64,000 nucleotides of DNA, taken from contig QPGO01000097.1 in NCBI GenBank assembly GCA_008632985.1, forward strand, positions 186,001 through 250,000, given 5' to 3'. The notes below the pieces were generated by a model. That model had not been told where the DNA came from. It did not search any database and saw nothing but the letters and a program-made list of their open reading frames with translations. This document shows, piece by piece, positions 4,468 through 35,828 of the stretch (within the stretch, counting starts at the first letter, position 1; the number at the start of each line of letters is the position of its first letter). The stretch comes from Psammoneis japonica. Lineage: Eukaryota. A program made the position numbers and the translations under genes.

Positions 4468-6106
4468 ATGTCTACTGGAGACTACAAAGGTGAGCATAAC
4501 TGTGTTGGGATTGTCCAATGTACAAGCTGCCGTTTGCTTAGTTTCAGTCTATTTCAAGACTTGCCTAACAGAAGGGATGCAACACCCCCTTTATGTGCAA
4601 ATCTCTGAACCTTTCTTGAATCATCGTGAAAAGCACTACAGTAGAACTTACGCTTGTGATGTTGCTTCTTTCCTAAAAAAAGTGAAGGATATCTCCCTTG
4701 CTGATTATGGACGCAAGGAGATTGACATGGCCGAGGTCGAGATGCCCGGTCTTATGGCCTGCCGCTCGGAGTTCGGTGGTGCTCAGCCTCTGAAGGGAGC
4801 TCGTGTTTCCGGATCCCTTCATATGACGGTGCAAACCGCTGTTTTGATCGAGACTCTCAAGAGCCTAGGCGCCGATATCCGTTGGTGCTCGTGCAACATT
4901 TTCTCCACTCAGGATCACGCCGCCGCCGCTATTGCTCGTGACGAGTCGGCTGCTGTTTTCGCTTGGAAGGGCGAGTCTCTCGAAGAGTACTGGGAATGCA
5001 CTCTCAATGCCGTCACCTGGCCCGAAGACGATGGAAAAGGTCACGGTATGGATATCATTGTCGACGATGGTGGGGATATGACACTTCTTATCCACGAAGG
5101 AAAGAAGGCCGAAGATCAATTCCTCAAGGATGGAACTCTTCCCGACCCCAGTTCTACCGACAATGCCGAATTTAAGATCGTGCTTACCATTATCAAACGT
5201 CTCCTCGAGGCTGGCGAGACCGATAAGTGGAACAAGATCGCCGCTCGTTGTGTTGGTGTCTCTGAAGAGACCACCACGGGAGTTCACCGTCTTTACACTA
5301 TGGAAAAGACTGGTACTCTCCTTTTCCCCGCCATCAATGTGAATGACTGCGTCACTAAGTCCAAGTTCGACAACCTCTACGGATGCAAGCACTCGCTCCC
5401 TGATGGAATCATGCGTGCTACTGATGTCATGATGGCTGGAAAGAAGGCGGTCATCTGCGGATACGGTGATGTCGGCAAAGGCTGTGCTGCTGCCATGCGT
5501 GCTTGTGGCTGCGTTGTGTACGTGACCGAAATTGATCCCATCTGCGCTCTCCAGGCCTGCATGGAAGGTTTCACTGTTACAACGCTCGATGACGTTGTTG
5601 GTATGGCGGATATTTTCATCACTACCACGGGTAACAAGGGAATTCTCATGGCTGACACCATGTCCAAGATGAAGAACAATGCCATTGTGGGAAACATTGG
5701 GCACTTTGATAACGAAATTGACATGGACGGGCTGATCAAGGCCACCAAGAGAATTAATATTAAACCGCAGGTCGACCGCTTCGAATTCCCCAGCGGAAAT
5801 GGGGTGATCGTCCTTGCCGAGGGGCGTCTTCTCAACTTGGGTTGCGCCACGGGTCACCCCTCATTTGTCATGTCTTGCTCCTTCACCAACCAGTCATTGG
5901 CACAGATTGAACTCTGGACTGAGAAGGACTCTGGCAAGTACGAGACCGGAAAGGTTTACGTACTCCCCAAGATTCTCGACGAGAAGGTTGCTCGTCTTCA
6001 CCTCGACTCCCTTGGTGCCAAGCTCACCGTCCTCTCTAGTGAGCAATCTGACTACATTGGCATCCCTGTTGAGGGTCCCTACAAGCCAGAGACTTACCGT
6101 TATTAG
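4468..6106 (+). CDS. SAHH: S-adenosyl-L-homocysteine hydrolase (adenosylhomocysteinase); exons 4468-4489, 4683-6106
   Basis: Spliced start [21 protein letters not shown]; signatures [62 protein letters not shown]-terminal YRY. Confidence 0.98.
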
Positions 6107-9189: not shown

Positions 9190-12100
9190 CCAATTCTCCC
9201 AAACACGTCACCACCCATTTAGAAGTTGTGGCTCCCATGGGGCAGAGGCATGCAATGCATTGGCAAGATCTGAGGTGTTGCATGCAGCGCACTCTCTGAA
9301 TCATCATCTGGCCAAACGCTTGGATCAAGTCATGCTGCAGCTCTCATTGGCAGCAGCGAAAGAATGCAAAAGATGCAAGGAACCTGAGTGGTCCCTGAAA
9401 CTTGCAGCTCTGTGGAAACAAGTTTTTGTGCTGTCCAGAATGATTTTGATGTTCCGTGACCACATGAACATTTTCCCTGCAGTCCTCCCTGCCAAACACC
9501 AACTTTCTGACTCCTTCTTACTTTCCACAATGCTGCTTGAATGCTCTGCCATTTTTAGACAGGCTCAAAGTGAGTGTCGCAGGGTTGCCAAAGAAAGCCA
9601 AAAACACTGCTGAGCTGGAATTGGACAGAGAACAAAACAGTCCCACACTCAAGCAAAGATTCGTCTTTGTAACTTGCATTGTGCCAAAGAAACCAAGAGA
9701 GTCTTTTGAAAGATCAATCTTTGTTTGAGTCTACAACCATGGTCATGTGGACAACACATCCAAACAAGTCAACAATTTTTGTGCCAGCCCCCAACCATCT
9801 GTGTTCAACCCATCCCTGTCTCTTCATTCAGATGGCCAATGGTGGTGCAATCTCCTGGATGCTGCAGGACATGAACCAGAACTGCCCAAATGCTCATTCC
9901 ACGCAATCAAACAGGACTTTGCCAAAATTGGCAAGCTGTGCATCCCACCCTGCCATGACAACATTGAAATTGAAATCTTCTCAGCAGATCAATCCACTTC
10001 AAGGTCCAGCAAACAACTTTTGGCGTGTGTCCCACACAAAACTCTTGGTCATTACATTGTGCCAATTGATGCTCAGAAAAGACTCAGTTGAACAAGTTAA
10101 AAATGAAGAGTGCTGCAGCCATGTTGTTCCTGCAGTTTTGTCTACTGGATCAGGTCAAATCCTGGAGGTGTCATCATGCATGTTTTCTGTTGTCCATGAC
10201 GTGCTTCCTCCCCAACTCAAATTATCTCCCCAATGAACCACAAATGGTGCAACAGAAAGCAGTGTGGATCATCTTTGCCAAATGTGGACACAACAGGGAC
10301 ACCAAGCATCTTGTCCTGTGTGGCCCCCAGTGGAGAAGGGAAATCATCAAGGATGCCACTGAAATTGGGAAAAGATGCAAAGGTGCCATGCAAATCACTC
10401 AAAATGTGCAAAATTTTTGTCTGCATGTGTGTGGATTCTGATTGTGCTGCAGCACCCCAAGTTTTGTGTGGGACATTGTTCTGCAGTCCCAGGCAATTTT
10501 GCACAGAAATTTGCTGGATCAACTGTTGTTGATCATGCTTGCAGGTTTTGTTGGTGTCTGATGTTGCCTTGGCAGATGGTCTCACCTTGGACATTGTGAA
10601 AGTAAAAGGAGATCCTTTTGTCTGCAGCAGTGTTGTCCTTGAACAACATTGAGCAACGCAAGCCTGGAACAAGAGCTTGGCACCACCTGCAGAAATTTTG
10701 TGCCTTGTTGTGTCATCCAAACTCCTTTCTCCTGAAAGAGCCACCAGGGAACTGGCTTGTCCCTCCTTCTACAATGAGGATGCGTGTGTCTGCATGCTTC
10801 ACTCCCTCTGAGGAACACTTGCGTGCTCGGAATCATGCAAAGTTTGACATTTTTCCAGTCAAAGGCACTCAAGCAACAATGCTGACAGAGATAGAAACAG
10901 TTCCAGATCTAGCCAAGGAATCCTTCCCAGTTGATTTGACTGCATTGGCAGGTGGGTTTTTGCTCTGCCCTGCACCTCAGTGTCTCTGCAACCAGAAATT
11001 GTTCCCCCGGAGTCCTTCAGTGACTGTCTCCATCCCTCCCACCAGCAGTGTTTCGAGAAGGTGGAGCTGCTGGTGTCTCCTCATGCCTTGGTGCAACTTT
11101 TTATTTCCTCAACACTCACGGCTGGCAGCGATGGATCCAAGGGATGCATCTCAAGTGCAGCCATTCCCTCATTGCCATTCACATCTGTCAGTGGGTGATG
11201 GCACAGTGACCTCCAACTGGAAGACACAGATTTGTCATGTGGCCATCCCCCCAGCTGCTGGAATGCACAGCTGAGTGCAACCAGTGGAGACCGGATGCAG
11301 CGGACTTGACAAATTGGAAATCTCATGCAGCCCTTGTCAAGCAACACTCCAAGCAACATGTCAACACAGTCAAGCTGGTCCACAACCTTCTCCCTGTAAA
11401 TGAAATTATGAACCAATGCAATCCAGTCTGTACCCACACCACTGCTTGACCTGCAAACACCCCATGGAGGATGGGGATCACACATCCTCAGATGCCCAAA
11501 CAACAAAAAGTGGAGAAGAAAATTCTTGCAAGGCCTCTGGCTTCACTGTGATCAGATTGATGCCATGCCACCACTGCAAGATTTTCTTGTAGCCTCCTTG
11601 GAGGCTTGGCTGAAAAACAAAATGATGCATGCTGATGACATCAATTGCAGATGCAGAGCTCTCTGGGAATTCCAATCGGACATTGGATGGCACCAAGCAT
11701 TCAATGGCCATTGTTCTTTTCTTTGCAATGTCACACAATCAGGCCATTTGCATGGCTCAGAAATCCTCAACCAGCACCAAGAGGAGAACAAGCAACCCCC
11801 AAATTGGATGGTGCAGATCAGATCACACACAATGGCTGGAACTCTGGAAGCAGGTCAGCACAACCAGTTGGTTCATGGACACAATGCAGACACCAGGAAA
11901 TCCTCTCAAAGGCATCAAGCAGAGGCTGAATTGACAGCAACATGCAAAAAAACGCCAGGAGCATTTGGCAAAAGATCCCGGAGTTCTGTTGGACAACTTG
12001 GAGGAGCACAAGACTTTCTCTGCAACCAGAACACAGAATTGGATCTCCATGGTCTGTCTCAGACTCAAAGAAAGTTTTGAGGAAGCAAAACATTTGGTGC

Positions 12101-12280
12101 TTTGCAGCACACACACAATTGCCAGCCATTTCCATTGGGTGTCTCCATCTGGAGGTGCTGCAACCAGCCAATTGCATTGTCTTCTGCCGCACCCCTGGCA
12201 GGGTGCACCGGAAGTGTGGGTTGAGTGGTGCCGGTGTTGCAGGGCAAAGGTGTGACAGCACTTTAAATTGGTTTTTTTTT
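9190..12280 (+). mobile_element. Degenerate non-LTR retrotransposon (LINE, diatom Ambal-like) ORF2 remnant
   Basis: Frameshifted motifs WCNLLDAAGHEPELPKCSFH (~9843-9903), PHKTLGHY (~10031), QSDIGWHQAFNGH (~11672) and WLELWK...VHG, resembling diatom LINE ORF2 from recall. Confidence 0.6.
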
Positions 12281-13481
12281 TTGTTTCAAAAATGATGCAA
12301 GAACTGGTTTGCAGGTGTGGTTGAAGTGGTGAAATCATCCTGTGGCAGGATTGTCCCAGAAGAAATTGCCAAGAAAGAAGATGGGTTTGACAAGAATGCT
12401 GACAATGACACCTGGAACAAAGAAAGAAACAAGTTGTCAATGGTGATGCCAGCAGAGAAGGCACCACAGATTGTTGGCATGTCTTGAAAGACCTGCATTG
12501 GCAGCTTACATTGGGGGTTGGCATTTGCCCCATTTCAGCCAAGGAGGCACTGCAGGTGTTGGGAAAACTTTGCAAGACCACCAACAAAAAGCCTGATGGC
12601 TCAAGTTTTGTGTGGAACAAGAAGCAGATTGGATGCTGAGGTTGGGCATGTGAGAAGAGATTGTCCCAACAATGATCATTCATCAGCAAAGTCAGATGCT
12701 GTGGTCCATGGGAGTCAGTGGAGAAGAGTCGATGTGGTGCTGGGTGGTGCACTGGATTCCAAGTGTGGCCCTCCTGTCCTTGATGCAAATGAGGCCAATC
12801 AGCTGATGGCCCATGTGAAGGAGTGTGCTGGAACATTGGGATTGAAGGCAGTTTTCATGGCACAGACAGACAAAGCTGCAAGATCAGATGCACTGATGAC
12901 TGTGGATGATCATGTGGCAAACTCATGATGTTTGAAACTCAGTTTGGGTTGTGGGACTTGTGCTCACTTTTTTAGCTTTTGCACCTGGTTGGTGCAGCAA
13001 TGGTGGTCAATGGCATCAGCAATGTGTTTGCAAGCAAGTTCAGAGTCAGCAAGACCAAATGTGTGCCAGTCAGTGAGCTGTGAAACTCACATGCATGATT
13101 TTTGTCAGAGAGCTCAAAAGGGCAAAAATGTGGCATTTGTGTCATTTTGTCCTGACCTGCTTCGACGTTTGGTGCCCAAGGGGCTCAAAAAGGCAGGTGG
13201 AACATTTGCACAATTTTGTCCTGGATGCCCACCCTGGTGCTCAGTGCTCAAGACAAGACAGCCCAAAGTGTTGTCACCTTGTGTTGGTGACAAGAACAGT
13301 TTTTGGAAAGCTCCCAAGGTGACAAATTTGATCACATGGGTGCCACCTTGGTGAGGATGCAAAGCCCTTGCAGCTTGGTCATGCACAGCCAAGAACACAG
13401 CACCCACCCAGAGCAAAACTGCACAGCAAATTCTTCTGAACACCAGCCACAGCACCCCCTCAATGCAAAACAAGGGGAAAA
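10334..13481 (+). repeat. Left arm (~3.15 kb) of a large inverted duplication
   Basis: Reverse-complement match to 15828-18977 at the ends and at several internal points; the ORF track shows near-identical peptides on opposite strands (e.g. MQKNARSIWQKIPEF, MKLSLGCGTCAHFF). Confidence 0.93.
12290..13090 (+). mobile_element. 3' part of gag-only LTR element: gag zinc-knuckle relic, PPT and 3' LTR
   Basis: VGHVRRDCP (~12640-12667), then GAAGGAGTG|TGCTGGAAC at 12826; mirrored at ~16230-17010 (-). Confidence 0.6.
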
Positions 13482-13959
13482 CAAACATTGCCATCATTTC
13501 TGCCACACATGATGTCTCCACTTCTGCTCTGGCCTTTGCTCTAGATGCCATTTGGCTCACCTTTGTGACAAAATGACAGAAGAACATTTTTTGCCTTGAG
13601 CAATCTGCTGCATTTTCTGCAACACACACTTGCAAGCCACCTCACTTTGTTTTGTCTTTTGTGCCACTTGACAAACCAAAAAGATTTTAGCAATGGGGCT
13701 GCAACAATGCCAAACAATGTTTTCAAGTGACTTGCCAGCTTGTGCATTTCTCAAGTCTTTGGATCTGTGCAATTTTTGCCATCTTGTCAACAAGCTGCAG
13801 GGTTTGGAATTTTGTGGCCCCTTCTGCTTGTTGTTTCCAGCCTGGATGCTCAGGCAGCTCAAGCAACTTGTGCGCCCTTGCCTTGCACCAACAACTGCAA
13901 AAGCCTTGCCAACTTGTCTCTGATGAGACATGCAAACTGACAAGATTGTGAAAAGTTTG

Positions 13960-15140
13960 ACATTGAGCATGTGGCTGCACCACCCCCCTGATTGTCCATC
14001 GGGAGACACTGCATTGGAGAAGGACAAGGTGGTCTGGGGCAAGAAAAGCAATCACTGCATTGAGCAGAGAGTGCAATCTGCAAGATGCAGAAGGCAAAGG
14101 TGTTTGACATGATCATGAGGCAATGTGCAAAGGCCACTTGTCACAAGCTTGAAAGAGTGGAGTTTGCAAAAATCACAAAGGAGCAGGATGTGATGGCGCT
14201 GTTGAGTGCTCCCAAGTTAATCTTCTTTGTTGATGCAAATGAGAAAATGAACCTGCATGATGTCCAGGTGGTCAAGGCTTGGAAGCAGTTGGCACTCATT
14301 TGTCAAGATGAAGGAGAGAAGTGCTTCAAGGCTGTTGCAGCTGCCAGCTCATGATTCATGAGTGTGGGTGAAGTGGCAAAATCGTCCTGTGGCAGGATCA
14401 TCCCAGAAGAAATTGCCAAGAAAGAAAATGGGTTCAGCAAGGATGATGCTGAGATGACACCTGGAGCAAAGAAAGGAACAAGTTGTCAGTGGCATTGCCA
14501 ATGGAAGGTGCCACAAAGGATCATTGGCTGCATGTTGTGGCTGAAAGACCTGCATTGGTGGCTCACATTGGGGGTTGACATGTGCCCCAGTTTGGCTGAG
14601 GAGGCATTGCATGTGTTGGACACTTGTCAGACCAACAAGAGTTCTGAGGGTGCAAGTTTTGCACAGAACAACAATGAGAAGGTTGTGTGCTGGAAGTGCT
14701 GCAAAGTTGGACACACAAGGAAGATTGTCCTGAGAGTGATCATTCCTTGGTCAAGTTGGATGATGTGGGCCATGGGAGTTGACAGAAAAGTCAACGTGGT
14801 GCTGTGTGGCATGGTTTTCAAGTGTCTTCCTCCTGTGCTTGATTTGCACAAGGTCATTTGATTGTTGACTTGTTTGGAGGAGTGTGTTGAAACATCAGGG
14901 TCAGAGGCAGTTTTTGTCACATGGATAGACAGAGTTGCAGCGCAAGATGCACAGACAATTGTGGACAACATGGCAAGTTTGCTCTCATGACATGGATTGA
15001 GTTGCAGGTCTTGTGCTCACTTTTCAGCTTCTGCTCATGGTTGATGTGGCAATGACAACCAGCAGCAACAGCCAATGTGTTTGCAAGCCACATGATGAGT
15101 TGAGAGATGGTGAGACCAAAGCAATGTGCAACAGTCAGCA
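13960..15140 (+). mobile_element. Degenerate gag-only LTR element: gag, zinc knuckle, PPT and 3' LTR
   Basis: KAKVFDMIMRQC...KLE...DVMALL (copia-type gag), CWKCCKVGH (~14690), then GGAGGAGTG|TGTTGAAAC at 14885. Confidence 0.65.
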
Positions 15141-15827
15141 AGTGGCAAAGCTCCAACAGCTCAACTCCTTTGGTCACAATGATTGCTTGGCATGCATCTG
15201 CTGATGTCCTTGTGAAAACACCCTGCTCTTCATCTGTCTGTGCTGCAATCTCTGACCAGCGCTCACAGGAAATGGAGAGAAAGAGATCTCATGCTGCAGT
15301 TGCAGAGATTTTGATGTGAGGCAAGAAGACCAAGGTTCTTCAAATTCAGCACACACAGAAGGAGGTTTGAGCTTTGAGCTGCAAAAAATCCTTGGAGCCA
15401 TGTGCCACCCAAGTGCAAGGGCCAATCTCCCAGAGCCATTCTTGACAAGGAAGCAACAAAGATGTTTTGTTGTTGGAAGCATTGTGCCCACTCATCCCCT
15501 CCTGGTGGAGAGAACTCAGAAGCTGCTCCCATGAGAGGGTTCTTCATTGTGTGGGTGCTGACCATCACAGCACCACACACAAGCAAATCCCAGAGTTGAA
15601 AGCAAAGCAAGCAAGGCAGAGCAGAGCAGATGAAGCAGGCATGGCACAACACAGCAGCAGAAACATTTTGTTGACATGTTGCACTTCTTGTCAGTCAAAA
15701 ATCAAAACATGAAAATTTTGACACTCTGGGCATGCAAAGACATGCAACAAAAGTGCAGCAGGTGCAACTTGCTTGCAGCACAGCAGGTGGCACCCTGCCC
15801 CATTCATTTGACAGAGAAGAGTGGCAC

Positions 15828-18800
15828 TTTTTCCCTTTTTCTGCATTGAGGGGGTGCTGTGGCTGTGTTGAAAAGAATTTGCTGTGCAGTTTTGCTCTGG
15901 GTGGGTGCTGTGTTCTTGGCTGTGCATGGCCAAGCTGCAAGGGCTTTACATTGTTGCCAAGGCAGTGCCCATGTGGTCAAATCTGTCACCTTGGGAGCTT
16001 TCCAAAAACTGTTCTTGTCACCAACACAAGGTGACAACACTTTGGGCTGTCTTGTCTTGAGCACTGAGCACCAGGGTGGGGCATCCAGGACAAAATTGTG
16101 CAGATGTTCCACATGCCTTTTTGAGCCCCTTGGGCACCAAGCATCAAAACAGGCCAGGACAAAATGATGCAAATGCCACATTTTTGTCCTTTTGAGCTCT
16201 CTGACAAAAATCATGCATGTGAGTTTCACAGCTCACTGACTGGCACACATTTGGTCTTGCTGACTCTGAACTTGCTTGCAAACACATTGCTGATGCCATT
16301 GACCACCATTGCTGCGCCAACCAGGTGCAGAAGCTAAAAAAGTGAGCACAAGTCCCACAACCCAAACTGAGTTTCAAACATCATGAGTTTGCCACATGAT
16401 CATCCACAGTCATCAGCACATCTGATCTTGCAGCTTTGTCTGTCTGTGCTGTGAAAACTGCCTCCAGCCCCAATGTTCCAGCACACTCCTTCACATGGGC
16501 CATCAGCTGATTGGCCTCATTTGCATCAAGGACAGGAGGGCCACACTTGGAATCCAGCATGCCACCCAGCACCACATCGACTCTTCTCCACCGACTCCCA
16601 TGGACCACAGCATCTGACTTTGCTGATGAATGATCATTGTTGGGACAATCTCTCCTCACATGCCCAACCTCAGCATCCAATCTGCTTCTTGTTCCACACA
16701 AAACTTGAGCCATCAGGCTTTTTGTTGGTCTTGCAAGTGTGCCCAACACCCGCAGTGCCTCCTTGGCTGAAATGGGGCAAATGCCAACCCCCAGTGCAAG
16801 TTGCCAATGCAGGTCTTTCAAGACATGCCAACATTCTGTGGTGCCTTCTCCACTGGCATCACCGTTGACAACACTTTCTTGTTTCTTTCTTTGTTCCAGG
16901 TGTCATTGTCAGCATTCTTGTCAAACCCATCTTCTTTCTTGGCAATTTCTTCTGGGACAATCCTGCCACAGGATGATTTCACCACTTCAGCCACACCTGC
17001 AAACCAATTCTTGCATCATTTTCGAAACCAAAAAAAAACCAATTTAAAGTGCTGTCACACCTTTGCCCTGCAACACCGGCACCACTTGATCCACACTTCC
17101 AGTGCACCCTGCCAGGGGTGTGGCAGAAGACAATGCAATTGGCTGGTTGCAGCACCTCCAGATGGAGACACCCAATGGAAATGGCTGGCAATTGTGTGTG
17201 TGCTGCAAAGCACCAAATGTTTTGCTTCCTCAAAACTTTCTTTGAGTCTGAGACAGACCATGGTGATCCAATTCTGTGTTCTGGTTGCAGAGAAAGTCTT
17301 GTGCTCCTCCAAGTTGTCCAACAGAACTCCGGGATCTTTTGCCAAATGCTCCTGGCGTTTTTTTGCATGTTGCTGTCAATTCAGCCTCTGCTTGATGCCT
17401 TTGAGAGGATTTCCTGGTGTCTGCATTGTGTCCATGAACCAACTGGTTGTGCTGACCTGCTTCCAGAGTTCCCACCATTGTGTGTGATCCGATCTGCACC
17501 GTCCAATCTGGGGGTTGCTTGTTCTCCTCTTGGTGCTGGTGGAGGATTCCTGAGCCATGCAAATGGCCTGATTGTGTGACATTGCAAAGAAAAAAACAAT
17601 GGCCATTGAATGCTTGGTGCCATCCAATGTCTGATTGGGCTTCCCAGAGAGCTCTGCATCTGCAATTGATGTCATCAGCATGCATCATTTTGTTTTTCAG
17701 CCAAGCCTCCAAGGAGGCCACAAGAAAATCTTGCAGTGGTGGCATGGTGTCAATCTGATCACAGTGAACCAGAGGCCTTGCAAGAATTTTCTTCTCCACT
17801 CTTTGTTGTCTGGGCATCCAAGGATGTGTGACCCCCATCCTCCACGGGGTTTTTGCAGGTCTGGCAGTGGTGTGGGCAGACTGGATTGCATTGGTTCATG
17901 ATTTCATTTGCAGGGAGAGAACGTTGTGGACCAGCTTGACTGTGTTGACATGTTGCTTGGAGTGTTGCTTGACAAGGACTGCATGAGATTTCCAATTTGT
18001 CAAGTCCGCTGCATCCGGTCTCCACTGGTTGCGCTCAGCTGTGCATTCCAGCAGCTGGGGGGGATGGCTGCATGACGAATCTGTGTCTTCCAGTTGGAGG
18101 TCACTGTGCCATCACCCACTGACAGATGTGAATGGCAATGAGGGAATGGCTGCACTTGAGATGCATCCCTTGGATCCATCGCTGCCAGCTGTGAGTGTTG
18201 AGGAAATAAAAAGTTGCACCAAGGCATCAGGAGACACCAGCAGCTCTACCTTCTCGAAACACTGCTGGTGGGAGGGATGGAGACAGTCACTGAAGGACTC
18301 CGGGGGAACAATTTCTGGTTGCAGAGACACTGAGGTGCGGGGCAGAGCAAAAACCCACCTGCCAATGCAGTCAAATCAACTGGGAAGGATTCCTTGGCTA
18401 GATCTGGAACTGTTTCCATCTCTGTCAGCATTGTTGCTTGAGTGCCTTTGACTGGAAAAATGTCAAACTTTGCATGATTCCGAGCATGCAAGTGTTCCTC
18501 AGAGGGAATGAAGCATGCAGACACACGCACCCTCATTGTAGAAGGAGGGACAAGCCAGTTCCCTGGTGGCTCTTTCAGGAGAAAGGAGTTTGGATGACAC
18601 AACAAGGCACAAAATTTCTGCCAGTGGTGCCAAGCTCTTGTTCCAGGCTTGTGTTGCTCAATGTTGTTCAAGGACAACACTGCTGCAACAAAAGGTTCTC
18701 CTTTTACTTTCACAATGTCCAAGGTGAGACCATCTGCCAAGGCAACGTCAGACACCAACAAAACCTGCAAGCATGATCAACAACAGTTGATCCAGCAAAT

Positions 18801-18977
18801 TTTTCTGTGCAAAAACGCCTGGGACTGCAGAACAATGTCCCACACAAAACTTGGGGTGCTGCAGCACAATCAGAATCCACACACATGCAGACAAAAATTT
18901 TACACATTTTGAGTGATTTGCATGGCACCTTTGCATCTTTTCCCAATTTCAGTGGCATCCTTGATGATTTCCCTTCT
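15828..18977 (-). repeat. Right arm of the large inverted duplication
   Basis: 18961-18977 TTGATGATTTCCCTTCT is the reverse complement of 10334-10350; 15828-15865 matches 13444-13481. Confidence 0.93.
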
Positions 18978-21900
18978 GTCCCTTTCCATCCTCTCCTAGA
19001 ACCGGCCAACAAAGCTCTGCATGCTTTGCGATGGACACACGTGGATGAAACCCATCAATTGGACATTTCAAACATTGGATTGTGCTCTTGCAAATTGGTG
19101 CTTGAAGAGCTGCAGCTGCATTGTGCTCCTCCTGCCACCCAGGAACACAGCAATTGCTGTGCTGACAACTGTCTTCAGATCTTTTGCAACTCCAATGAGT
19201 CCACCAGCAGCTTCATCAAGTGCTTTGAACGCAAGCTTTGCAGTTGCAAAAACACCTGTCTGCCAGTCAAAACTGACTCTGATGTCAGCCTTCATTTTCT
19301 CAGCCAAGTGGGTTGCCATGCACAGTGCAATGTGACAATCAAACAATTTGAGTCCAAATTTTGCACTGCCGCTCACCTCTCAACTTCTGTTGTTCCTCTG
19401 CTCAAGGATGTCAGGCAAACTTTCTGTGACATTGACGAGCAGCATCACAATCAACAACACCACGACTGTCAATCCGGTGGCACTTGCTCACTCTCGAACA
19501 ACGATCATGCTCACCTGGCCACTGCCAAGCACAGCCCACCGAATGGTCAACCAAGACAGCAAGGCCACCCACACAACTCTGGTGCACCCCAAATCTGCAG
19601 CCACTGTCACAAACGGAATCACAACACTGCTGAATGCCGTTCCCGTCTTCATGATGTGAAGAACAGCACCGCCAAACCCAATTTGACCACAAAGCCTGCT
19701 CGGGATTTGAGTGAGGTCATTTGCCATCACTGCAAGAAGGAGGGACACCTTTGACCTCAATGCCCTGAGCTCAAGAAAAGCAAAATCAAACCGCAGCACT
19801 TGTGCCACTGCCACTGGCATGCCAACCAAGACCTGCTGTAACGCTGTTGAACCAAAAAACACCAAAATTGTTTTCTGCATCACTTGTGCTGACCCAGAGG
19901 AAGCTCACTTCGTTGCTTCATCCTCTGTGGACTCTCTGCTGCTGCTTGCATTGTGCCCCCTGTTGAGCTGTGATGACTCCTTGTCCGAGTCATCCTTTGG
20001 CTCCAACCCATCTGATTGTTGCGTGTCACTCTCGACTCATGGATCAATGCCGACCCTTGCTCTGCAGGAGCTGCTGGCAGATTTAGGTGCGGAGTGCAAT
20101 GTTGACAACAACTTGTCCATTGACTCTGATGCCACCGGTCCGCCACCTCTCTTGCACACCACAATTGCAACTCCAGCACACAGACTCGTCCTTGGCCATG
20201 CCCATTTTGCATCATTCCAAGCCTGCCCCAGTCTCACCGCATGCACACGTTGATGCTGCGGCAATCAAACAGGGTGCCCTCATCCCGAAGACATTCGTTT
20301 TCCCTTTGCCCTCACATGAAGAACACCCATTTGGTGCACCTGTCATCTTGACAACTGTGGCGCCAATGTTCCAATCGGATGCGCACGATGCATGCATGCT
20401 TGCAGCACCTCTTGATGCTCTGCCATCAACAGTTTCAAATGATGACAACTCGTTGGTCATTTCAGCACTCAGCACTGACACCTTCAAGCAACCCTTGTCC
20501 TCTCCTTCCAATCAAGTCACCAACAATGTGCTTGATCAGGTTGCTCTCATGGCCAATGGCCCAATCATTGCCAACCTCAGCAACTCCCACGTGACATTGA
20601 TCTGTCAGACATTTGCAGCTGGTTTGTTGACTCTGGTGCCTCGTCTCACTTTGTTTGCCATGATTCACATGACAACCCCGTTGATTGTCATGTTCCTGTT
20701 GTGAATGCCGATGGCACTGCTGTTCATGCAACAAAAGTTGGTTCTGTTGCTTTGCATTTCCATGATGATCAAGGGCACCCAGTCAATCTTGTTCTTGACC
20801 ACATTCATCACACCCCTGGACTCAATCAGAACTTGTTTTTGGCACCTTCTTTCATGGCCAACGAACTTTTTCATGTCAGAAATACAACAAACATCACAAC
20901 ACTCGATTTTGTCAATGGACATGCCTTCAGTTTCCCAGTGCTTCATCACAAAGCTCCAGTCACAATGCAAGTGCCGATGCTGCTCCATTGGATGATTCAG
21001 ACAATTGGTTGATGTCCCCAACACCAGCCAACCCTGTGTCCACACCACAAAAGACCACCGCCATTGACCTTGATCTTGCAGGCCAATGTTTTGGAAGTCG
21101 TTCTTCCCAGAGTCTTTTGGCTGGCACAGTTGGTGAGGTCTGGTGTGACTGCCATGTTGCCCCTGGGACTGACAACTGTCTGGACAATGCACACATCGTG
21201 ACATCCAGAAAAATAAATCATGTTAAATGGGGCCCATCTGAACCAGAACATCCTTTTTCACATGTGTTTGTGGGTGTAATCCCCAACCCACACTCAGTGA
21301 CTCTCACCCCAAAAATGTCTTTTCCACACCACCTTTTCCTGGCTGCCCACAAGGGACACTGCTGTGGAGTTCATGGCATTGAGAGTCCCTCCTCTGGCAA
21401 CATTGTTGCAGCTGTCAAATCATGGGTGGCTGAGGTTCAGGCCACAGGACAGGTGAAAGATGTCAATCATGTCCAAGCTGACTCTGCACAACATTTTCTA
21501 TCCTCTGAATTTGTTGCTTTTGGCGACGCCAATGGCATCAGCCAAGGTCAAGATTGCTGCTCTACGACAGCAAGAGCAAAACGGAGTTTCTGAATGCATG
21601 TGGCAGAGGTTGTCAGCAATGTGATGTGCTGCCTCCTTGTCAATGCACGCCTCTTGGCCCATTTTTACCATCACACCTTTGTTTGCACAGTTGTGATCCA
21701 GAGTGCACTGCTGGCCAAAGGCAAGCACCTGCCTGATGGATCTCTTGCCACTCCACACTTTCATGCTTTCAACAAGCAACTCAAGATTGGCCATTTGAGC
21801 ATTTTTGGCTGCCCGGTCATTTTTGACAGATGCCAACCAGACAACCTGGAAACTTGCCACCCGCTCACCACTTCACAACAGCTTCAATGCCATTCTTGCA

Positions 21901-24240
21901 GCACCCACGTTGGTTTTGCACCTCACAATCCTGGACATCTCATCTGTGTGCCCAAGGGCATTGGAACGAACAATCTGATTGTTGCACATGATGTTGTCTT
22001 CAATGAACACTTTGAATCCTTGCTCGTGCATGACCACACTCCATTCTCCGGTGTGCCCCCAATCCAGAACATCTCCAATGATGCATCTGGCCTTGCCACT
22101 TGTGACGAGATGCCAGCAGACAAGCACACAGGTGCCATCCAAGATTTCCTTGATGTGGACTCACCTGCTTCCCCCCCCAACCTCATTGACACAACACTGG
22201 ACAGCAATGAGTCTGACTCGGCACCACCTCCACCTGAACCTGCTCCCACCAGCTTGCAATGCTCCACTCACTCCAACCTTGGACCTTGGCATGCAAAGGT
22301 CTGTGCACTTTGCCGACAAACGTGCCAAACTGCACACAGCATTGGCTCTCTCTTCCATTGACTTGCTCAAGCAGATTCTATTTGATGACTCACCTTCCAC
22401 AGAAGAATCCCACAGCACATCAGTTGCATCACCTTGGCTTGACTGCAATTGGCACAACTGTCCTGATCCTTTGCAGCAGGCTTTGGAAGCTGTCCAAGCC
22501 ACCACCAACCTCCCTGTTGATGACTGCTTGCCCACTTCTTGCACTTTTAGAGCCATCCTCAGACAACCACCCATGACGCCTGGCTTTGTGCTGTCCCCTC
22601 TGAGCTTGAAAACCTCATTGTGGACAATGAGACTTGTGCTCTTCACAAATGCCCATGTCACAATGATGAGATTTTTGGTGCCACCCTTGCTCTCTGTGCC
22701 AAACAGAAGCCAGATGGTTCCCTCAAGAAACTCAAGGCACGACACTGCACATGCAGCAACATGCAGTGCCAATCTGACAATGACAACAATTGCCCCCCCC
22801 CAATGCCTTGTCGCGAGCCATCAAGATGTTCTTGGCTTTTGCTGCACAAGCAAAATGACACATCAAGAATGGTGATTTTGCAAGTGCTCACCTTCAGGCT
22901 CCCGCTTGCAGCCATCTCTTTGTCCACTTCAATCCAATCCTGAAGCAATGTTTTCTGGAATGCACGGAACATTTTGGTGTTCCTTTCAGACTCAAGAAGG
23001 GCATGCATGGGACCATCTGGAGTGGCCTTTGGTGGTCAACCAAGCTCTCTGAATTTTTGATTGACCAAGGATGCACCAACTCAAAGGCTGATCCCACCTT
23101 CTTTGCCAAGCACTTTCCTGATGGATCCTGTCTCAACTTGATTTTCTGCACTGATGATGTGATCTATTTTGGATTGAACGATTGAGCTGAAAAGGATTTT
23201 GAGAAGCTCATCAAGTCCAAGTGCAACATTGCATTCACTGGTGACATTGCCTGGTTCCTGCAAATGCACACTCACAGATGTGAGGATGGATCTTTCTCCC
23301 TTGACCAACACCAATGCATTTGCAATCTGCTCAAGCAATTTCTGAGTCTGGACTCACCTTGGGGCAGCCCCAGCTTTCAGGACACTCCAGCTCCAGTTGA
23401 TTGCGTGCACTCCAAGAAGAACCAACCAAAAGACAAAGCTGATTCCAGTTCCATGGCAACTGAGTGTCCTGGTCTCCATTTCCAATCCACTGCCTGTTCC
23501 ATCTTGTGTCTTGCCCACAACATGCATGCTGACATTTTGTGGATCACCTGCAAGCTTGCAAAGGCTTGCACCAACCCTGGCACAAAGGATTTTGATGCTG
23601 TTGTTCACCTTTTTGGTTGTCTTCAAAAACATCAAGACCTTGCCATCAAGTTCTGTTTTGATCCCACCACAAGCCCTGTTCATGTGATTTGCGAGGCCCA
23701 CAACATCAGTCATTCTGAGTTTGTGCTTTTCACTGATGCCAGCTGGCAGGACTGTCCAGACACTGCAAAGTCAACCATTGGATTTATGACCTGCTTCAAT
23801 GGGGCAATTGTGGAAGCCAGTTCCACTGTCCCGACCCCTGTGGCAATGTCCACTGCAGAATCTGAGTGGATGGGTGCCCACACTGGTGCAATGGCTGTTG
23901 CTCACCTGTGCATGTTGGCCCATGACTTTGCCTGCCTTGGCACCCGCCACTGCTCCATCAATTCCCAGTGTCTCACTGCTGTCCCTGCCATCATCATGTT
24001 GGACAATCAGGCCACAGTCTGGAATGGCACAGAATGGCCAACAGACTCAACACACAAGACACATCGAGCAATGTTTCCAATGTGTCCATGAGGGTCAGCA
24101 ACAGGGTCATCACCTGCTTGTGTGGGTCCCCGCTGAAAGTCAATTGGCAGACTGCCTTACAAACACTCAGTGTGCTGAAAAAATTTGGGTCATGGTTGAT
24201 CATGTCCTGTGGTGCCTTCCCACTCACATGTTGTCATGAG
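18978..24240 (+). mobile_element. Degenerate Ty1/copia retrotransposon gag-pol (pseudogenised)
   Basis: Zinc knuckles CSHCHKRNH and CHHCKKEGH; protease WFVDSGASSH (20620-20649); integrase QADSA..FLSSEF and QEQNGVSE; RT KKLKAR, DFASAHLQA, LKKGMHG, CTDD; RNase H FTDASW, STAESE, DNQA, QLADCLT; order PR-INT-RT-RH. Confidence 0.92.
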
Positions 24241-27123: not shown

Positions 27124-27354
27124 TTCTAGCCCTAGACTCCAAGCCAAGCAATGAGAGGAAGCTGTGGCTGGGTGAGTCGCGGGGGTCATCGCGGAGGTAG
27201 ACTAGCGAGGGACAGACGGGAGGCCGAGGACGGAGGACAGACGGACGCGACGAGATCCCAGACATGACCAATCCACGCATTGTTCCCTTGGCAGTCAGCA
27301 TCAGAGGGGTGCAACCATGGTCCACTGCAGCAACCATGTCTCATTGCAAAATTA
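27124..27354 (+). repeat. Split direct repeat A1
   Basis: Matches 35578-35808 with 3 differences found (27132, 27259, 27332). Confidence 0.95.
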
Positions 27355-28214
27355 ACACTCTGTTGATGATTGCTAAGGATCGGGGAGCGATGTGCGTGCC
27401 CCAAACGTTCATTTTGTCAAATTCTGCGCTTGTGACAGAGCAATTTGACTGGGATTTCGGAACCGACTCATGAACAGTCGTTGTTTCCGACCCCTCTCCT
27501 TTTTACTGTGCCAATGCGGCAATGCCTGCTGTTGAGAGGACGGTCTCCTCTGTGCAACCAAATGCCACTTTCCTGATGACCGCTCAGTGCACGGGTTGTT
27601 CCCTCGCGGTGGCAATGGCCGCATGCCATCGGCCATGGTTGACTCCCTCGCTGGGACGAGGGTGGAACCATTGACACATTCACAAATGTGTGCCTCCTGA
27701 CAATGGCATCTCTCTTTCCTGCACACCAGTCATTCAACTGCCAGTCCCGCACGCTTGGCGATCGACCATGTGATGTGTCCATCTGCGCCACGAATGTTTC
27801 GATGCAGGCACGGAGCGTGTTGGGTCCTCCAAGTGCCAGTGCCTGCTTAAGAGCAACCGTTGCACAGGGTTTGCGGTTCACATTGTTTGCAGCCATTGAA
27901 AATTTTGAAAATCCAAATTAAACACCATGAGGAATCGTGTCGTGTCATCTCCGTTTTAATCATGATTTTCGAAAGTCATGGACAGGATGCTCCACCTGCA
28001 GAGTTCACGGCCGGACGCTGTGAGAGGGACTCCTCATAATTTCCGAAGTCAGCCATTTGCAACGAGACCGTGAAGTCATTGTTCAACGACCATGTTTGCT
28101 CCTTCCGCCACTGCTGTCCAGCGGGTTCGTGGTGCTGCCAACCAGCACCACACGACAGCGTTTCCATTCTCTGACGAGAACGCAATGGTCCTGGCTTCTG
28201 CGCTTTGACCAGGT

Positions 28215-30947
28215 GTGAACCATGAGGTTCACCACGCTGTCGCATCTGATCCGATGAAAGTGACCCAGTTTGCATTCATGCACTCAAAGCGGATCATGAT
28301 TCTCACCCGCCCTCAAGTGTTCACTTCGACGGCAGGGACTGCCTCTGTCATTGGGAGCTTGTCGGACGAGATTGGGAGTCATGCCCCAGTCTCTGTCGCT
28401 CTCGACTCCTTTCGAGCATCGATGACTTCGCTCCTCACGTTGCGATCGGTCACGGCTTTCCACCTTCCCAAGTTGGATCAGGCGCCGGATGCTGTTGATG
28501 GTCCAACAACTTTGGACGTGTTCCAGCCGCACGTGAACCAAATCGTGCACAAAAACGACATTTGCGCGATTTTTGCGCGGTCCCTAACTTACGATCGAAC
28601 TTTCACCACCAAAAGTATAGATTTATCCAAATGTGAATGTTTTGCAACACTAACAAGACTCGTGTGAGTGTTGCAATGTCATTGTCATTGTGCTGTCTAT
28701 GTTTTCCATTGCGTTAAAAGATTCGCAACACAACGGATGATTTTCGGCGAAAACATTGCCGTCATTTGGATGTTGCCTGAACACATCTTTCTACAATGCC
28801 ACTTGGTGGTTTTCTACCTACAAAGAAATCTCAGTGTAAATCCACTGACGTACAATCAGCATTGAGTCAACTGAGGAAGTTTGTGACACATGTCCCATGA
28901 GGACTTGAATGCCCCACAAAAAACTGTTTAAATGTTCATGCTCTAGACGCCTGTAAAAGCCAATCCGCTCAAGCATTTTTGTGAAAATGCTACATGCACT
29001 AAAAGATACATAATTTACACTCAAAATCGATTGTCGTTTTGTGCGTCACCTGGGACTGGAACACGTCTTTGCTGGAGGACGACCGGGTTGCATCCATGGG
29101 GCGTCTACACTTCCCGCCACCTGCGGCTGCGGACGACCATCCGCGGATTTCTGTGCCACCGCCATTCCCACCTTTGCCGCCAGGCAAGACTTTCCCCAGT
29201 GGCATTCCTGTGGATGAGCCCACTCCGGAGTTGGACGCGGATTTCCCTCTGGGAGCTGCATGGAAGCGTGGCATGCAATGCATTGCAGCAAACAACGACG
29301 AGCGCTCGGTTGCGAAGGGCGGCCCTTTGTTCGATGCGAGCCAGATTGACGATGCCGCGGATTTCGATGGTTTCGACATCGCGAATCGTCTGTTGCAAGT
29401 GGATGATGTGAGCATCCTGGCGCCTGTCACGGACTCATGCCATTCGGTCAAGCAGTCTGTGAAGGCTTTTGATGCCCTGGCATGGGGCTCCCCAGGAGCA
29501 GATGCTGATGCGGATGATGCAGCGGCGCCGGCAGTCGGTGGTGGTGGTGACAATGGCGGCATGACAAACAACCAAATTGTGGCGTTGTGTCAAGGGATTG
29601 CTGCAGCACCCCGTCCCCCTGCTTGGAAGGAAGAGGAGCGTCTCGAGGTTGCCACTGAGCATGCCCGGCGCTGGGGGTTGGTTGCGGGGTGTGTTGCTCC
29701 TCCGCCTGGTGGAATGGGTGAAGCGACGTTTGTTCTTGGAGAACTGCGCCCAGAATTTGTGGTGGCACTCAAGGTCTGACAAATTTGTGACCACCCGCAA
29801 ATTTTTGGATCTGGTTGCCCAAGTCTTGGCTGGGTTGTGTACGAGCAGTTCCTTTCTGGACAAGTCGGCGCACTTGTCGCACGAGGTGATCAATGAAGCG
29901 TTCACCACGAGTGTGCGTTCGTTCCACATGCATGCACAGCCTGCAACCTGCAGCGTGCAGGCTCTGCTGTCCAAGTTTTCCATTGTTCTTCTTCTGGAAC
30001 CTGACACGGCGACTTCGACGTGGGAGACAATCATGGATGAACATTCCAGTCTCCCGCTGCAGGAGCAGTGCAGTCAGTCGAAGTCGGACGTGGAACTGTC
30101 TGCCCTCAAGTCGTCAGTTCTGTGTGCTCAGGGAAGGATCAACACGCCGAAGGACATCACTGCTGCAGCATGTAACCTTCGTGCTTTTGGACCATGTCTG
30201 ACACCGGACTTCGACCAATCTGCGTTGTGGAAGTCGGTCAAGTCGCACCACGACGTGCTTGACTCGGAGCGTGGCGCCGAGTGGCTGGCACGTAATGCCA
30301 AATCACCCCAGGCATTGGTGAATGCACTGTTGGACATTCAGAACATCCTGGCGGAGTGTTTGATTGTCGGCAACCAGCCAGCGCATTGCAAGGCGATTGG
30401 CGCTGGGGACACTGTAGATCCGAGGATCTGCGACCAGGTGAGTGTGATTGCGAAGCAGCTTGCTGCGGAGTTGCAGACAGCAATCTCGTCGGGCCGCCCG
30501 GGATGCTGCAACACCATCACGGACGTTGCCAGAAAGCTCATTCCGGCATTGACCAAGTCAGACAAGTCTGCCCCGGTGGCAGCTGCAGATGGTGAGGCAT
30601 CTGAACCTGCCAAGAAAAAGCAGAAGACGCTTCTTTCGGATGAAGAAAAGGAGAAGCGTAAGAAGCTTGGCATCCTTGTGTACAGTGGCAGTGGCAAGCC
30701 GCCGCAGACCTGCCCAGTCTATGCCAAGAAGTCTCGTGACTCAACGGCAGAAGAGCGTTGCTGCACAAACTTCATGATGGTTGGGCGTTTCTGTGCCAAT
30801 GCGAACTGTCCGAAGCCTCACATCACGAATGCTAAAGTGTTGGGCAATGAAAAGGAGCAGCAGTTCTGTGGCTGGGTTAAAGAGACTGAGGGACTCAGTT
30901 TCGCACCTGGAAAAGGCCCTGCTGGTGAGGCTGCTGTCCAAACATGA
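28215..30947 (+). pseudogene. ORF1/gag of the YR retrotransposon, interrupted by a MITE and a frameshift near 29770
   Basis: ORFs 28215-, 29039- and 29577-30947; removing the MITE joins DGPTTL|LEDDRV in frame; C-terminal CTNFMMVGRFCANANCPKPH finger. True start uncertain. Confidence 0.75.
28515..29067. mobile_element. 553-bp MITE (non-autonomous DNA transposon)
   Basis: Perfect 12-bp TIR GACGTGTTCCAG/CTGGAACACGTC; inner inverted GCACAAAA(A)CGACA; 4-bp TSD TTTG (28511-28514, 29068-29071); AT-rich interior. Confidence 0.88.
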
Positions 30948-31156
30948 GCGACGCTCAATTGGAGACGATCATCGGTTGTGACACCATCCTCTGCTGTTTC
31001 TGTCTCTGATGGATGGCATGCACCAACGAACTAATCCTTTGTTTTGATCTTTGTGTGTTCATTTGTCACTGCAATGACGAAGCATTGCACAATGCGAGTC
31101 CAATCGTTCCTCTGTTGTCCGATTCATTGGCTTCTAGTTTGGGATTTGATCCTGTG

Positions 31157-34954: not shown

Positions 34955-35361
34955 ATTGGGGCTGTGCCCAACAAAGTGGCCTCCCAAACTCAGGGTGTGA
35001 AGACGGATGTCATGCGACCCGTTCCCTCTCTGGGCGATGTCAGCTCACACACTGTTGACCTTGTGTGTCAATAAATTCCGATTTCAAATTCGAAATTTTC
35101 ATTGACAACTTCATGCTGTAGATGACACACCTCAGTGAGGAGGCAGTGCGAAAGTTGTGACGATTTACCGCCTTTTTCTTCCATTTCTGCCGTGTTCCCC
35201 TCTTTTTTGTCTGTCTTTCTTCTCTTTTTTCTTTTTTTTTTCTCTTTTTTTCTTTTTTTCTTTTTTCCGGTGGATCTCACCTCCGATGACATGGGCGCGG
35301 ACGTGCGCACGCCTCTGGTGTGTTTCACTGTCAGGCGCATGCGCTGCGTCGGCTCGACATG

Positions 35362-35577
35362 GGCTGTTTCGGCACAGTGCCGGATATCCTCTATTTTGTC
35401 TAGGCTACGTTGCTGTAGACCTTCAGACTCGCATATCCGGGTTCCTATTAGCTACTACTTCTACGGTGCAACTACTACTGTCTATTGTACACCCTAGATC
35501 TAGTGCTGTGGATCACTGTTGCACGTCATCGAGGTGCTGATCCGCTGAGGCGGTGGCCGGGAATCCCATGGGGATTC
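35362..35577 (+). repeat. Split direct repeat B1
   Basis: Identical by eye to 35829-36044. Confidence 0.95.
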
Positions 35578-35808: not shown

Positions 35809-35828
35809 TCCCACCTCATTCCCACCCT

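Follow-up and report, generated by a model that had tools for sequence, protein, structure and literature searches.

The 64,000-nucleotide stretch of diatom DNA analyzed here (the window) contains an inverted duplication within a retrotransposon graveyard. Our favored reading, to which we give a probability of about 0.6, is that two dinucleotide-specific processes acted on this chromosomal DNA, and that the arms of the duplication were TA-poor before they were duplicated and then diverged by ordinary and CG-type substitution. The first process would be a fast and early hypermutation of TpA to TpG or CpA, with both products on a given strand and sharp domain edges; adenine deamination at TpA, or a thymine modification that mispairs, may be the chemistry behind it. 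The second would be a slow loss of CpG, likewise to TpG and CpA, such as methylated CpG would be expected to produce. Judged by its footprint in the sequence, TA-to-TG/CA hypermutation is real in this diatom genome, and it seems to act quickly, to come early, and to stay within sharply bounded domains.

Two repeat islands carry this footprint, with TA observed/expected ratios of 0.02-0.1 and TG and CA ratios of 1.5-2.2 across both:

7000-27100, no strand: old repeat island containing the inverted repeat (TA observed/expected 0.02-0.11, CG 0.02-0.42, TG and CA about 1.5-2.2)
20536-21009, forward strand: degraded Copia-type remnant, Pol_BBD (Pfam)
21594-22358, forward strand: degraded Copia-type remnant, SH3_retrovirus (Pfam)
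22859-23182, forward strand: degraded Copia-type remnant, RVT_2 (Pfam)
44500-54700, no strand: second TA-starved island, CG near normal at 44.5-47 kb and grading to depleted at 49-54.5 kb
47616-48580, reverse strand: NTM1-type methyltransferase-like pseudogene in the second island
52990-53319: Copia fragment in the second island

Six 1-kb intervals (29-35 kb and 45-46 kb) combine a TA observed/expected ratio below 0.15 with a CG ratio above 0.6, and no 1-kb interval across the window has CG below 0.3 and TA above 0.11; TA was therefore lost before CG. The old islands hold about 3 TA per kb versus about 5 in the young element described below. The island edges, near 6.5-7, 35.1-35.3, 44.3-44.5, and 54.5-54.8 kb, each span about 250-500 bases, and the genes at these edges have TA ratios of 0.45-0.75. 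The adenosylhomocysteinase gene at 4679-6103 has its best named relatives in diatoms, at 86-91% identity, which marks the host as a diatom.

A young retroelement resembling those of the DIRS order follows the old island:

27124-36044, forward strand: the whole DIRS-order-like element, split direct repeats included (interior TA observed/expected 0.02-0.16, CG 0.7-0.95)
27124-27354 and 35578-35808: repeats A1 and A2, identical at 228/231 positions
35362-35577 and 35829-36044: repeats B1 and B2, identical at 216/216 positions
31201-32991, forward strand: polymerase-like ORF P0122 with 882 relatives at E ≤ 1e-3; conserved Tyr columns 0/9 kept, five changed to CAY (His)
33638-34951, forward strand: tyrosine-recombinase-like ORF P0123; conserved Tyr columns 0/6 kept, four changed to His

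The arrangement A1, interior, B1, A2, B2 is what we take to be the layout of a DIRS-order element, and 27124-36044 matches it. The split direct repeats keep 5-6 and 17 TA each, beside 0-3 TA per 250 bases of adjoining interior. Since near-identical repeats retain TA next to a TA-poor interior, the process would have been quick and bounded. Burst-like timing of this kind presupposes that the DIRS-like copy acquired its mutations once inserted here, and the argument would be weaker if the insertion came from an already dead master copy mobilized in trans. The mutated element has no second copy within the window.

Across the element none of the 15 conserved Tyr columns is kept, nine having become CAY (His) and one, the invariant C-terminal Tyr of P0123, TGC (Cys), while other conserved columns are kept at 267 of 389 positions. 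We infer from this replacement of conserved Tyr by His or Cys, against a background of mostly preserved conserved columns, that the direction of change was from TA to CA or TG. The TA ratio of the element is 0.08, compared with 0.21-0.90 in 49 of 80 relatives retrieved from metagenomes by a search with a 6-sequence alignment. By codon phase there was no consistent strand bias relative to 13 intact relatives, and TG was raised as much as CA or more, both on a noisy baseline because these relatives are distant. A purine preference two bases upstream was considered as the cause of the His/Cys bias and rejected, since a purine immediately precedes the Tyr codon in seven of the nine His cases. Pfam returned no match for the ORFs of the element or for five relatives of P0122, and the relatives of P0123 have no precomputed Pfam domain. 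The P0123 family profile matched, weakly and at the catalytic C-terminus, only Cre/Tre recombinases (E about 0.2), and the polymerase-like P0122 family matched no solved structure.

The inverted duplication lies in the old island and was delimited by alignment:

10334-13481, forward strand: left arm (12 TA, about 690 TG/CA)
13482-15827, no strand: spacer between the arms, 2346 bases, TA- and CG-starved (4 TA, 7 CG)
15828-18977, reverse strand: right arm (9 TA)

Local alignment of 10334-13481 with the reverse complement of 15828-18977 covers 3138 columns at 96.5% identity, with 12 gaps, each 1-6 bases long; of its 109 mismatches, 90 are transitions and 19 transversions. The spacer holds, at 14362-15088, a paralogue of arm segment 12315-13035 with about 71% identity; this paralogue is older than the duplication of the arms and includes a frameshifted CX2CX4HX4C zinc-knuckle remnant. 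No Rfam family matched in the window, and Pfam found nothing credible inside the arms among the 138 of 208 stop-to-stop island ORFs of at least 90 amino acids that were scanned. A NET2A_C Pfam match (E = 0.0024) was rejected as falling under its cutoff.

Contigs of a DNA run from one study, here called X1 and probably derived from the source sample of the window, give a copy-number profile of the left arm, although as contigs they cannot show rare variants. From about 75-215 over 10000-12144, the depth of shared words jumps to about 1800-2050 over 12145-12534, then falls to 400-700 over 12535-13119 and about 175 over 13120-13509. These steps indicate that the arm is a mosaic, its segment 12145-13119 being present in tens of copies. 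The arms are thus supported as a DNA-level segmental duplication of a mosaic and not as two retro-copies, so that the differences between them arose in chromosomal DNA. A preliminary description of this region had proposed just such a duplication of dead transposable element pieces, with subsequent changes in chromosomal DNA, and full pairwise alignment confirmed its boundaries exactly.

The X1 contigs also bear on the letters themselves. They contain a share of 0.78 of the exact 31-letter words of the window; contigs of 565-898 bases match it with 0-1 differences and are the same TA-poor sequence. Among the 40 differences listed for X1, at least 14 are positions where its contigs reproduce right-arm letters, including doublet positions 12859 and 12891. 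Because DNA contigs carry both the TA-poor sequence and the arm differences, the changes are in DNA. At single-copy position 10143 the window has TA and the run CA, an unpolarized difference within the same sample. The G of X1 at 11408 may stem from a third copy, since that bin has about three-copy depth.

Mismatches between the arms were tallied for the pyrimidine-purine (YR) dinucleotides TA, CG, TG, and CA, with pairs given as left/right and followed by the number of sites:

TA/TA: 6
TA/TG: 4
TA/CA: 4
CG/CG: 11
CG/TG: 10
CG/CA: 11
TG/CA doublets: 13
TG/TG: 335
CA/CA: 338

The 13 TG/CA doublets compare with about 0.15-0.2 expected and a maximum of three across 3000 null simulations, and a model lacking a hypermutable dinucleotide was rejected (LRT 78.8, p = 8e-18). 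They therefore prove that a hypermutable palindromic dinucleotide, be it CG, TA, or both, went on decaying in chromosomal DNA after the duplication, independently in each arm. Dropping extra TA decay leaves the fit as good as that of the full model and implies about 6 ancestral TA and about 42 ancestral CG; this CG-only fit predicts 9.6 doublets against the 13 seen. In the old islands the CG observed/expected ratio is 0.02-0.3, and CG-versus-TG/CA mismatches between the arms number 21 where the context-free null expects 15 (P = 0.085). The CG-decay model is the best fit, although a model with TA decay and no extra CG decay was not rejected (LRT 1.6, p = 0.21).

TA is common to both arms at six sites, and these six survived the whole period since the duplication. 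The TA of the left arm at 10892, 11397, 11407, 11590, and 12507 and of the right arm at 18901 and 18247, each reported in the preliminary description as facing TG or CA, were all verified, as was a CG-versus-CA difference at 10494/18816; one further site has TA in the right arm at 15947-8 and CA in the left at 13360. TA-bearing sites thus differ between the arms in 8 of 14 cases (57%), and the context-free null, from 3000 simulations, gives a mean of 58% (95% range 42-69%). With about 680 TG/CA sites in the arms and only about 10 TA sites, ordinary transitions would make these mismatches, and the eight are fully explained by G>A or C>T gains at the TG/CA sites. Their rate per TG/CA site (8/690, or 1.2%) is lower than the 2.0% of A/G mismatches after a 5' A or G, and their number compares with 15 expected under the same null (range 8-23, P(≤8) = 0.035). 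Lying at the low end of the gains-only prediction, the eight would fit a removal of new TA.

The direction of change at TA-versus-TG/CA mismatches cannot be polarized from the arms. As an outgroup, the 71% spacer paralogue covers five of the doublets, reads TG, CA, TC, or a gap at every one, and was set aside as uninformative there; only 12507 is suggestive, its three copies (two arms and the paralogue) reading TA, TG, and CA, with the two shortest reconstructions giving TA in the arm ancestor. Setting TA decay to the background rate carries no likelihood cost (LRT 0.0, p = 0.97), also when the ratio of G>A to A>G rates is fixed at values between 0.6 and 2.65. The likelihood profile allows a per-arm TA loss of 0 to about 80%; it stays flat for rates up to about 0.65 per product per arm, and values above about 0.85 are excluded. 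TA loss after the duplication is consequently not readable from the arms. The preliminary description had seen in them an independent, ongoing loss of TA. Its independence stands, in the sense that a hypermutable dinucleotide decayed separately in each arm (13 doublets, LRT 78.8); the identification of that dinucleotide as TA, and of its loss as ongoing, is not supported by these data (LRT 0.0). An enrichment of TA/TG-CA mismatches per available TA site, whose absence that description had named as its refutation, is present, but trivially so, because the count is conditioned on TA being present in either arm.

Under our favored reading, the unit would have been nearly TA-free when it was duplicated, with about 6-14 TA in 3.1 kb and probably about 40 CG remaining. 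Later changes would comprise ordinary substitutions (35 other transitions and 19 transversions), CG decay at 21 CG-versus-TG/CA sites, the conversion of one ancestral palindromic dinucleotide into different products at 13 doublets, most simply from CG, and the formation of a few new TA through ordinary G>A or C>T changes, seen as the eight TA mismatches. The earlier view, in which TA hypermutation is still active and most TA mismatches together with a good share of the doublets are post-duplication TA losses, seems to us unlikely, if still worth serious consideration. The flat profile up to about 0.65 per product and the LRT of 1.6 for a TA-only model leave room for it, but that model requires an ancestor with about 37 TA and about 11 CG, the reverse of the order found elsewhere in the window, and the likelihood gain from added TA decay is nil (LRT 0.0). 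Six TA sites common to both arms speak against continued loss; the shortfall of TA mismatches relative to gains alone (8 vs 15, P = 0.035), the surplus of doublets over the CG-only fit (13 vs 9.6), and the three states at 12507 speak for it, as does the finding that the old islands, at about 3 TA per kb, hold no more than the young element at about 5. The TA>CA difference of X1 at 10143 points the same way, yet it is a single, unpolarizable difference in a run from the same sample.

It is improbable, in our estimation, that the bulk of the TA depletion arose before integration, through ADAR- or APOBEC-like editing of retroelement RNA or minus-strand cDNA at the TpA adenine, with chromosomal DNA left untargeted. 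The recognizable targets are indeed retroelements (the Copia remnants and the DIRS-like element), but a host-type methyltransferase pseudogene sits in equally TA-poor DNA, and the split direct repeats of one and the same element retain TA with a sharp edge. Sense-strand T>C accounts for nine of ten Tyr-codon changes, as editing of minus-strand cDNA would produce, whereas TG and CA are both enriched about 1.5-2-fold on the same strand throughout the islands and the codon-phase comparison, noisy as its distant relatives make it, has TG up at least as much as CA. The same signature moreover appears de novo in chromosomal DNA of Bigelowiella natans clonal lines (bioRxiv 10.64898/2026.01.13.699255). 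We regard as very improbable indeed the idea that the TA poverty is an artefact, modified TpA bases having been miscalled in the long-read assembly, and we found no evidence in support of such miscalling. Base-calling errors linked to modified motifs occur in general, but the 31-letter words of the window recur exactly in X1 DNA contigs (share 0.78), and the 565-898-base contigs, with 0-1 differences, are equally TA-poor. At 10143 the window has TA and the run CA, the reverse of what miscalling in the window would yield.

We offer, tentatively and at somewhat less than even odds, the broader proposal that diatoms possess a TpA-directed, domain-limited DNA hypermutation that mirrors fungal RIP. 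A burst would kill newly resident retroelements by erasing nearly every TA, hence every Tyr codon and TAA or TAG stop, independently of and earlier than CpG-methylation decay, and the machinery would read boundaries within a few hundred bases. The same signature being found in a chlorarachniophyte, such a process, if true, would amount to a genome defence by adenine editing, either old or recurrent, in SAR-clade algae. Natural introduction of A:T>G:C changes at a single dinucleotide of DNA has been reported only once before, in the 2026 preprint on another algal lineage; a much deeper diatom footprint on retrotransposons, cleanly separable from CpG decay, would widen both host range and target range. 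A TA observed/expected ratio below 0.1, combined with TG and CA ratios near 2 and with His or Cys in place of Tyr, could serve as a sequence-only diagnostic. There is also a lesson of method, namely that in dinucleotide-starved sequence the differences between duplicates at that dinucleotide are mostly its re-creation, so that counts per available site cannot show loss and doublets and outgroups are required.

Fungal RIP is a DNA-level, dinucleotide-specific transition hypermutation of repeats that makes TpA from CpA. The process described here resembles it in killing repeats at the DNA level and leaving sharply bounded, skewed domains, and differs in its opposite polarity, TpA being destroyed. 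Dependence on duplication, unlike in RIP, is unseen here; the duplicated arms share six TA and the mutated DIRS-like element is single in the window. RIP itself (C>T at CpA, raising TpA) was rejected as the cause, TpA being nearly absent and CpA enriched. As in the methylated-CpG decay of silenced transposons, the change of CG to TG/CA is progressive with apparent age, with 21 arm differences in addition to the doublets, which independent decay of the two strands would be expected to leave, but such decay cannot account for the TA loss, which in the young element and at 44.5-47 kb came with no loss of CG. ADAR-type A-to-I editing prefers adenines after U or T, and long inverted repeats are classic dsRNA substrates; here, unlike in ADAR editing, the changes are in genomic DNA, are present in DNA contigs, and affect both strands.

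Our literature search found no relevant diatom report of TA-poor transposons. The only described counterpart of the TA-loss process is the TpA hypermutation of integrated viral DNA in B. natans, which Mettrop et al. (2026, bioRxiv 10.64898/2026.01.13.699255) saw arise de novo in mutation-accumulation lines and whose hallmark is a rate exceeding background by orders of magnitude. The two systems differ in several respects. The host here is a diatom, a stramenopile, and not a chlorarachniophyte; the targets are retrotransposon islands and not an integrated giant virus and virophage; the TA ratio of 0.02-0.1 is far deeper than the 0.45 of the B. natans giant-virus region; CpG decay is superimposed, whereas CpG is never mentioned in the main text of the preprint; and the process is deduced here from sequence where it was observed directly in B. 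natans. They are alike in the conversion of TpA to TpG and CpA, in TA-poor, TG/CA-rich clusters enriched for reverse-transcriptase and transposase-like genes, and in a seemingly non-constitutive process. The confinement of A:T>G:C changes to TpA is reflected here, indirectly, in TA poverty, TG/CA excess, and Tyr loss, and in both genomes the changes are limited to foreign or repeat DNA in sharply bounded domains, the island edges of the diatom marking where neighboring genes were spared.

Across the window the observed/expected ratio of TA is 0.28 and that of CA and TG is 1.49, and a dinucleotide profile at 1-kb resolution divides the sequence as follows.

Observed/expected TA and CG by region
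Genes: TA 0.45-0.75, CG ~1
Island, 7-27 kb: TA 0.02-0.11, CG 0.02-0.42
29-35 kb: TA 0.02-0.16, CG 0.69-0.83
Second island, 44.5-54.7 kb: TA uniformly low, CG falling from ~0.7-0.8 to ~0.15

In six 1-kb intervals TA is below 0.15 and CG still exceeds 0.6, and in no interval of the window is CG under 0.3 where TA exceeds 0.11; the two losses are therefore separable, and TA was lost first. The genes have long exons, and the closest named relatives of the adenosylhomocysteinase gene (4679-6103) are from diatoms (86-91% identity). Residual TA sites in the islands (7-27, 29-35, 45-46, and 47-54 kb; n = 126) avoid a 5' A or a 3' T: ATA accounts for 8% versus 23-26% expected, ATAT is absent, ATAC and GTAT are nearly so, and TTAA, TTAG, and TTAC are commonest. 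This bias suggests that purine-T-A-pyrimidine contexts may be the most sensitive to TA loss.

A repeat finder and local alignment placed the inverted duplication at 10334-13481 and the reverse complement of 15828-18977, exactly as in the preliminary description. The arms align over 3138 columns at 96.5% identity, with 12 small gaps and 109 mismatches, of which 90 are transitions and 19 are transversions. A Pfam search covering 138 of 208 ORFs (at least 90 aa) in the islands gave no credible match within the arms. Word depth in contigs of X1, a DNA sequencing run probably from the same sample as the assembly, steps along the arm from the single-copy level of ~70 to ~1800-2050 at 12145-12534, indicating that copy number changes within it. 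In addition, the spacer carries a 71% identical paralogue of arm segment 12315-13035, including a frameshifted CX2CX4HX4C motif that we take to be a zinc knuckle. These steps and the paralogue bear out the proposal that a mosaic of repeat pieces was duplicated here as DNA. Segments 12145-12534, 14095-14484, and 14875-15069 (depth ~1300-2150) belong to one repeat family of tens of copies with a gag-like zinc-knuckle remnant. Between arms and paralogue (12300-13060 vs. 14347-15113), TG/CA doublets, with TG in one copy and CA in the other, visibly predominate among the differences, so this older duplication appears to be likewise marked by independent decay of a palindromic dinucleotide.

Arm mismatches by class
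TG/CA doublets: 13 doublets, 26 mismatches
CG versus TG/CA: 21 mismatches
TA versus TG/CA: 8 mismatches
Other transitions: 35 mismatches
Transversions: 19 mismatches
YR (TA, CG, TG, CA) sites common to both arms: TA/TA 6, CG/CG 11, TG/TG 335, CA/CA 338

The individual sites reported previously are all present in the alignment, namely TA kept in the left arm at 10892, 11397, 11407, 11590, and 12507 and in the right arm at 18901 and 18247, and CG versus CA at 10494/18816; a right-arm TA at 15947-8 opposite left-arm CA 13360 joins them. At single-copy position 10143 the sole X1 contig covering the site has CA and the window TA. A second single-copy X1 difference is A>G at 15385, within an A run.

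TA-bearing sites differ between the arms in 8 of 14 cases (57%) versus ~2% for purines in other contexts. This enrichment, proposed earlier as the test of TA loss, is confounded because the arms hold ~680 TG/CA sites, each one ordinary transition from TA. In a null simulation with the left arm as ancestor and context-free rates from non-YR sites (3000 replicates), 58% of TA-bearing sites differed (95% range 42-69%), and TA versus TG/CA differences in both directions are thus the null expectation for TA-starved sequence. The same simulation gave 15 TA mismatches (range 8-23; 8 observed) and 0.15 doublets (maximum 3; 13 observed). A/G mismatches by 5' base number 17/863 for A, 14/710 for G, 21/714 for C, and only 8/690 for T.

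A likelihood model with four states (TA, TG, CA, and CG) was fitted to the arms together with the background A/G data, leaving the ancestral frequencies free. A model without a hypermutable dinucleotide was rejected (LRT 78.8, p = 8e-18). Omitting extra TA decay left the fit equal to that of the full model (LRT 0.0, p = 0.97) and implies an ancestor with ~6 TA and ~42 CG, and omitting extra CG decay lowered the fit slightly, though not enough for rejection (LRT 1.6, p = 0.21), and implies ~37 TA and ~11 CG. Results were unchanged with the ratio of the G>A rate to the A>G rate fixed anywhere from 0.6 to 2.65. A likelihood profile over the rate of TA decay shows no slope between 0 and ~0.65 per product per arm and crosses 3.84 near 0.85. 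The fits therefore prove that some palindromic YR dinucleotide, for which TA and CG are both compatible, decayed independently in the DNA of each arm after duplication. To this extent the earlier claim of independent decay holds, but it is not shown for TA specifically: its observations were accurate, and the arms do not demonstrate ongoing TA loss, as the null reproduces the mismatches and extra TA decay adds nothing to the fit.

The TA-first, CG-later order elsewhere in the window and the six TA sites common to both arms argue that the old mosaic held little TA by the time of duplication and that the doublets are mostly CG derived. There are hints that TA loss continued after duplication and supplied some doublets: TA mismatches lie at the low end of a gain-only expectation (P = 0.035), 13 doublets were observed versus 9.6 fitted, site 12507 reads TA, TG, and CA across the two arms and the spacer paralogue, and X1 differs at 10143; against this, the six common TA sites survive.

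Direction and tempo are better read outside the arms.

Features outside the arms
27124-36044: young DIRS-like retroelement, split direct repeats A1 - interior - B1 A2 B2
31201-32991, plus strand: polymerase-like ORF (P0122)
33638-34951, plus strand: tyrosine-recombinase-like ORF (P0123)
47616-48580, minus strand: methyltransferase pseudogene, ORF pieces matching PF05891 (E = 1.7e-22 and 1.8e-05)

The element's repeats are nearly identical (A1/A2 228/231, B1/B2 216/216), and the three A1/A2 differences include one CA (A1) versus TA (A2) and one CA versus CG. Relatives number 882 for P0122 (E<=1e-3) and 18 for P0123; no Pfam model was found for either, and a P0123 family profile matched only Cre/Tre recombinases, weakly, across the catalytic end. 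Columns with Tyr in at least 60% of relatives keep it in 0/9 cases in P0122 and 0/6 in P0123, versus 164/218 and 103/171 for other conserved columns. Nine of these Tyr columns are now CAY His, and the invariant C-terminal Tyr of P0123 is TGC Cys. TA loss is thus real, with its direction, TA to CA/TG, legible in the Tyr columns. The TA ratio is 0.08 in P0122 versus 0.21-0.90 in 49 of the 80 metagenomic relatives fetched; one of these, L035:524-2409, is both TA-poor (0.21; TG 1.61) and Tyr-poor (0.5%), so at least one other environmental genome has probably undergone the same kind of decay.

The interior has lost nearly all TA with CpG almost intact. Also almost intact are the terminal repeats, which keep 5-6 and 17 TA each versus 0-3 per 250 bases in the adjoining interior. 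Within the interior, ~600 bases (28501-29100; GC fraction 0.41-0.43) keep 21 TA and were either spared or inserted after the process. The contrast between repeats and interior points to a process that is fast and has sharp bounds. In the arms any such process was much slower, because six common TA survived; the comparison of tempo rests on non-YR substitutions (1/447 bases in the split repeats, 54/3138 in the arms) and assumes that the element was mutated where it now lies.

Several features speak against sense RNA having been edited ahead of reverse transcription: TG and CA are both enriched on the same strand everywhere, the terminal repeats are spared though part of the element, the changes are carried by DNA contigs of X1, and a host-type methyltransferase pseudogene sits in TA-poor DNA. 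This frameshifted copy of the AdoMet-dependent proline dimethyltransferase family (TA ratio ~0.1) has His/Cys where the family motif has Tyr, and appears to be a host-type gene copy struck by the same process. In the Tyr codons of the two ORFs His outnumbers Cys 9:1, a T>C bias on the sense strand that the preceding base does not account for; other codon phases of these ORFs gave no consistent signal of it.

Deep TpA-specific hypermutation of diatom repeat DNA is real. A literature search for TA-poor transposons in diatoms found nothing relevant, and the sole counterpart found was a 2026 preprint on Bigelowiella natans (bioRxiv 10.64898/2026.01.13.699255), which describes TpA>TpG/CpA mutations arising de novo ~1000-fold faster than background, in an integrated giant virus and a virophage and in some lines only, and TA-poor clusters enriched for transposon-like genes. 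CpG is absent from the main text of that preprint, whereas CG depletion is also present here. Among better known systems, RIP in fungi is of opposite polarity, CpG decay accounts for the CG part only, and ADAR targets RNA. We regard the diatom hypermutation as a further case of the kind very recently described in B. natans.
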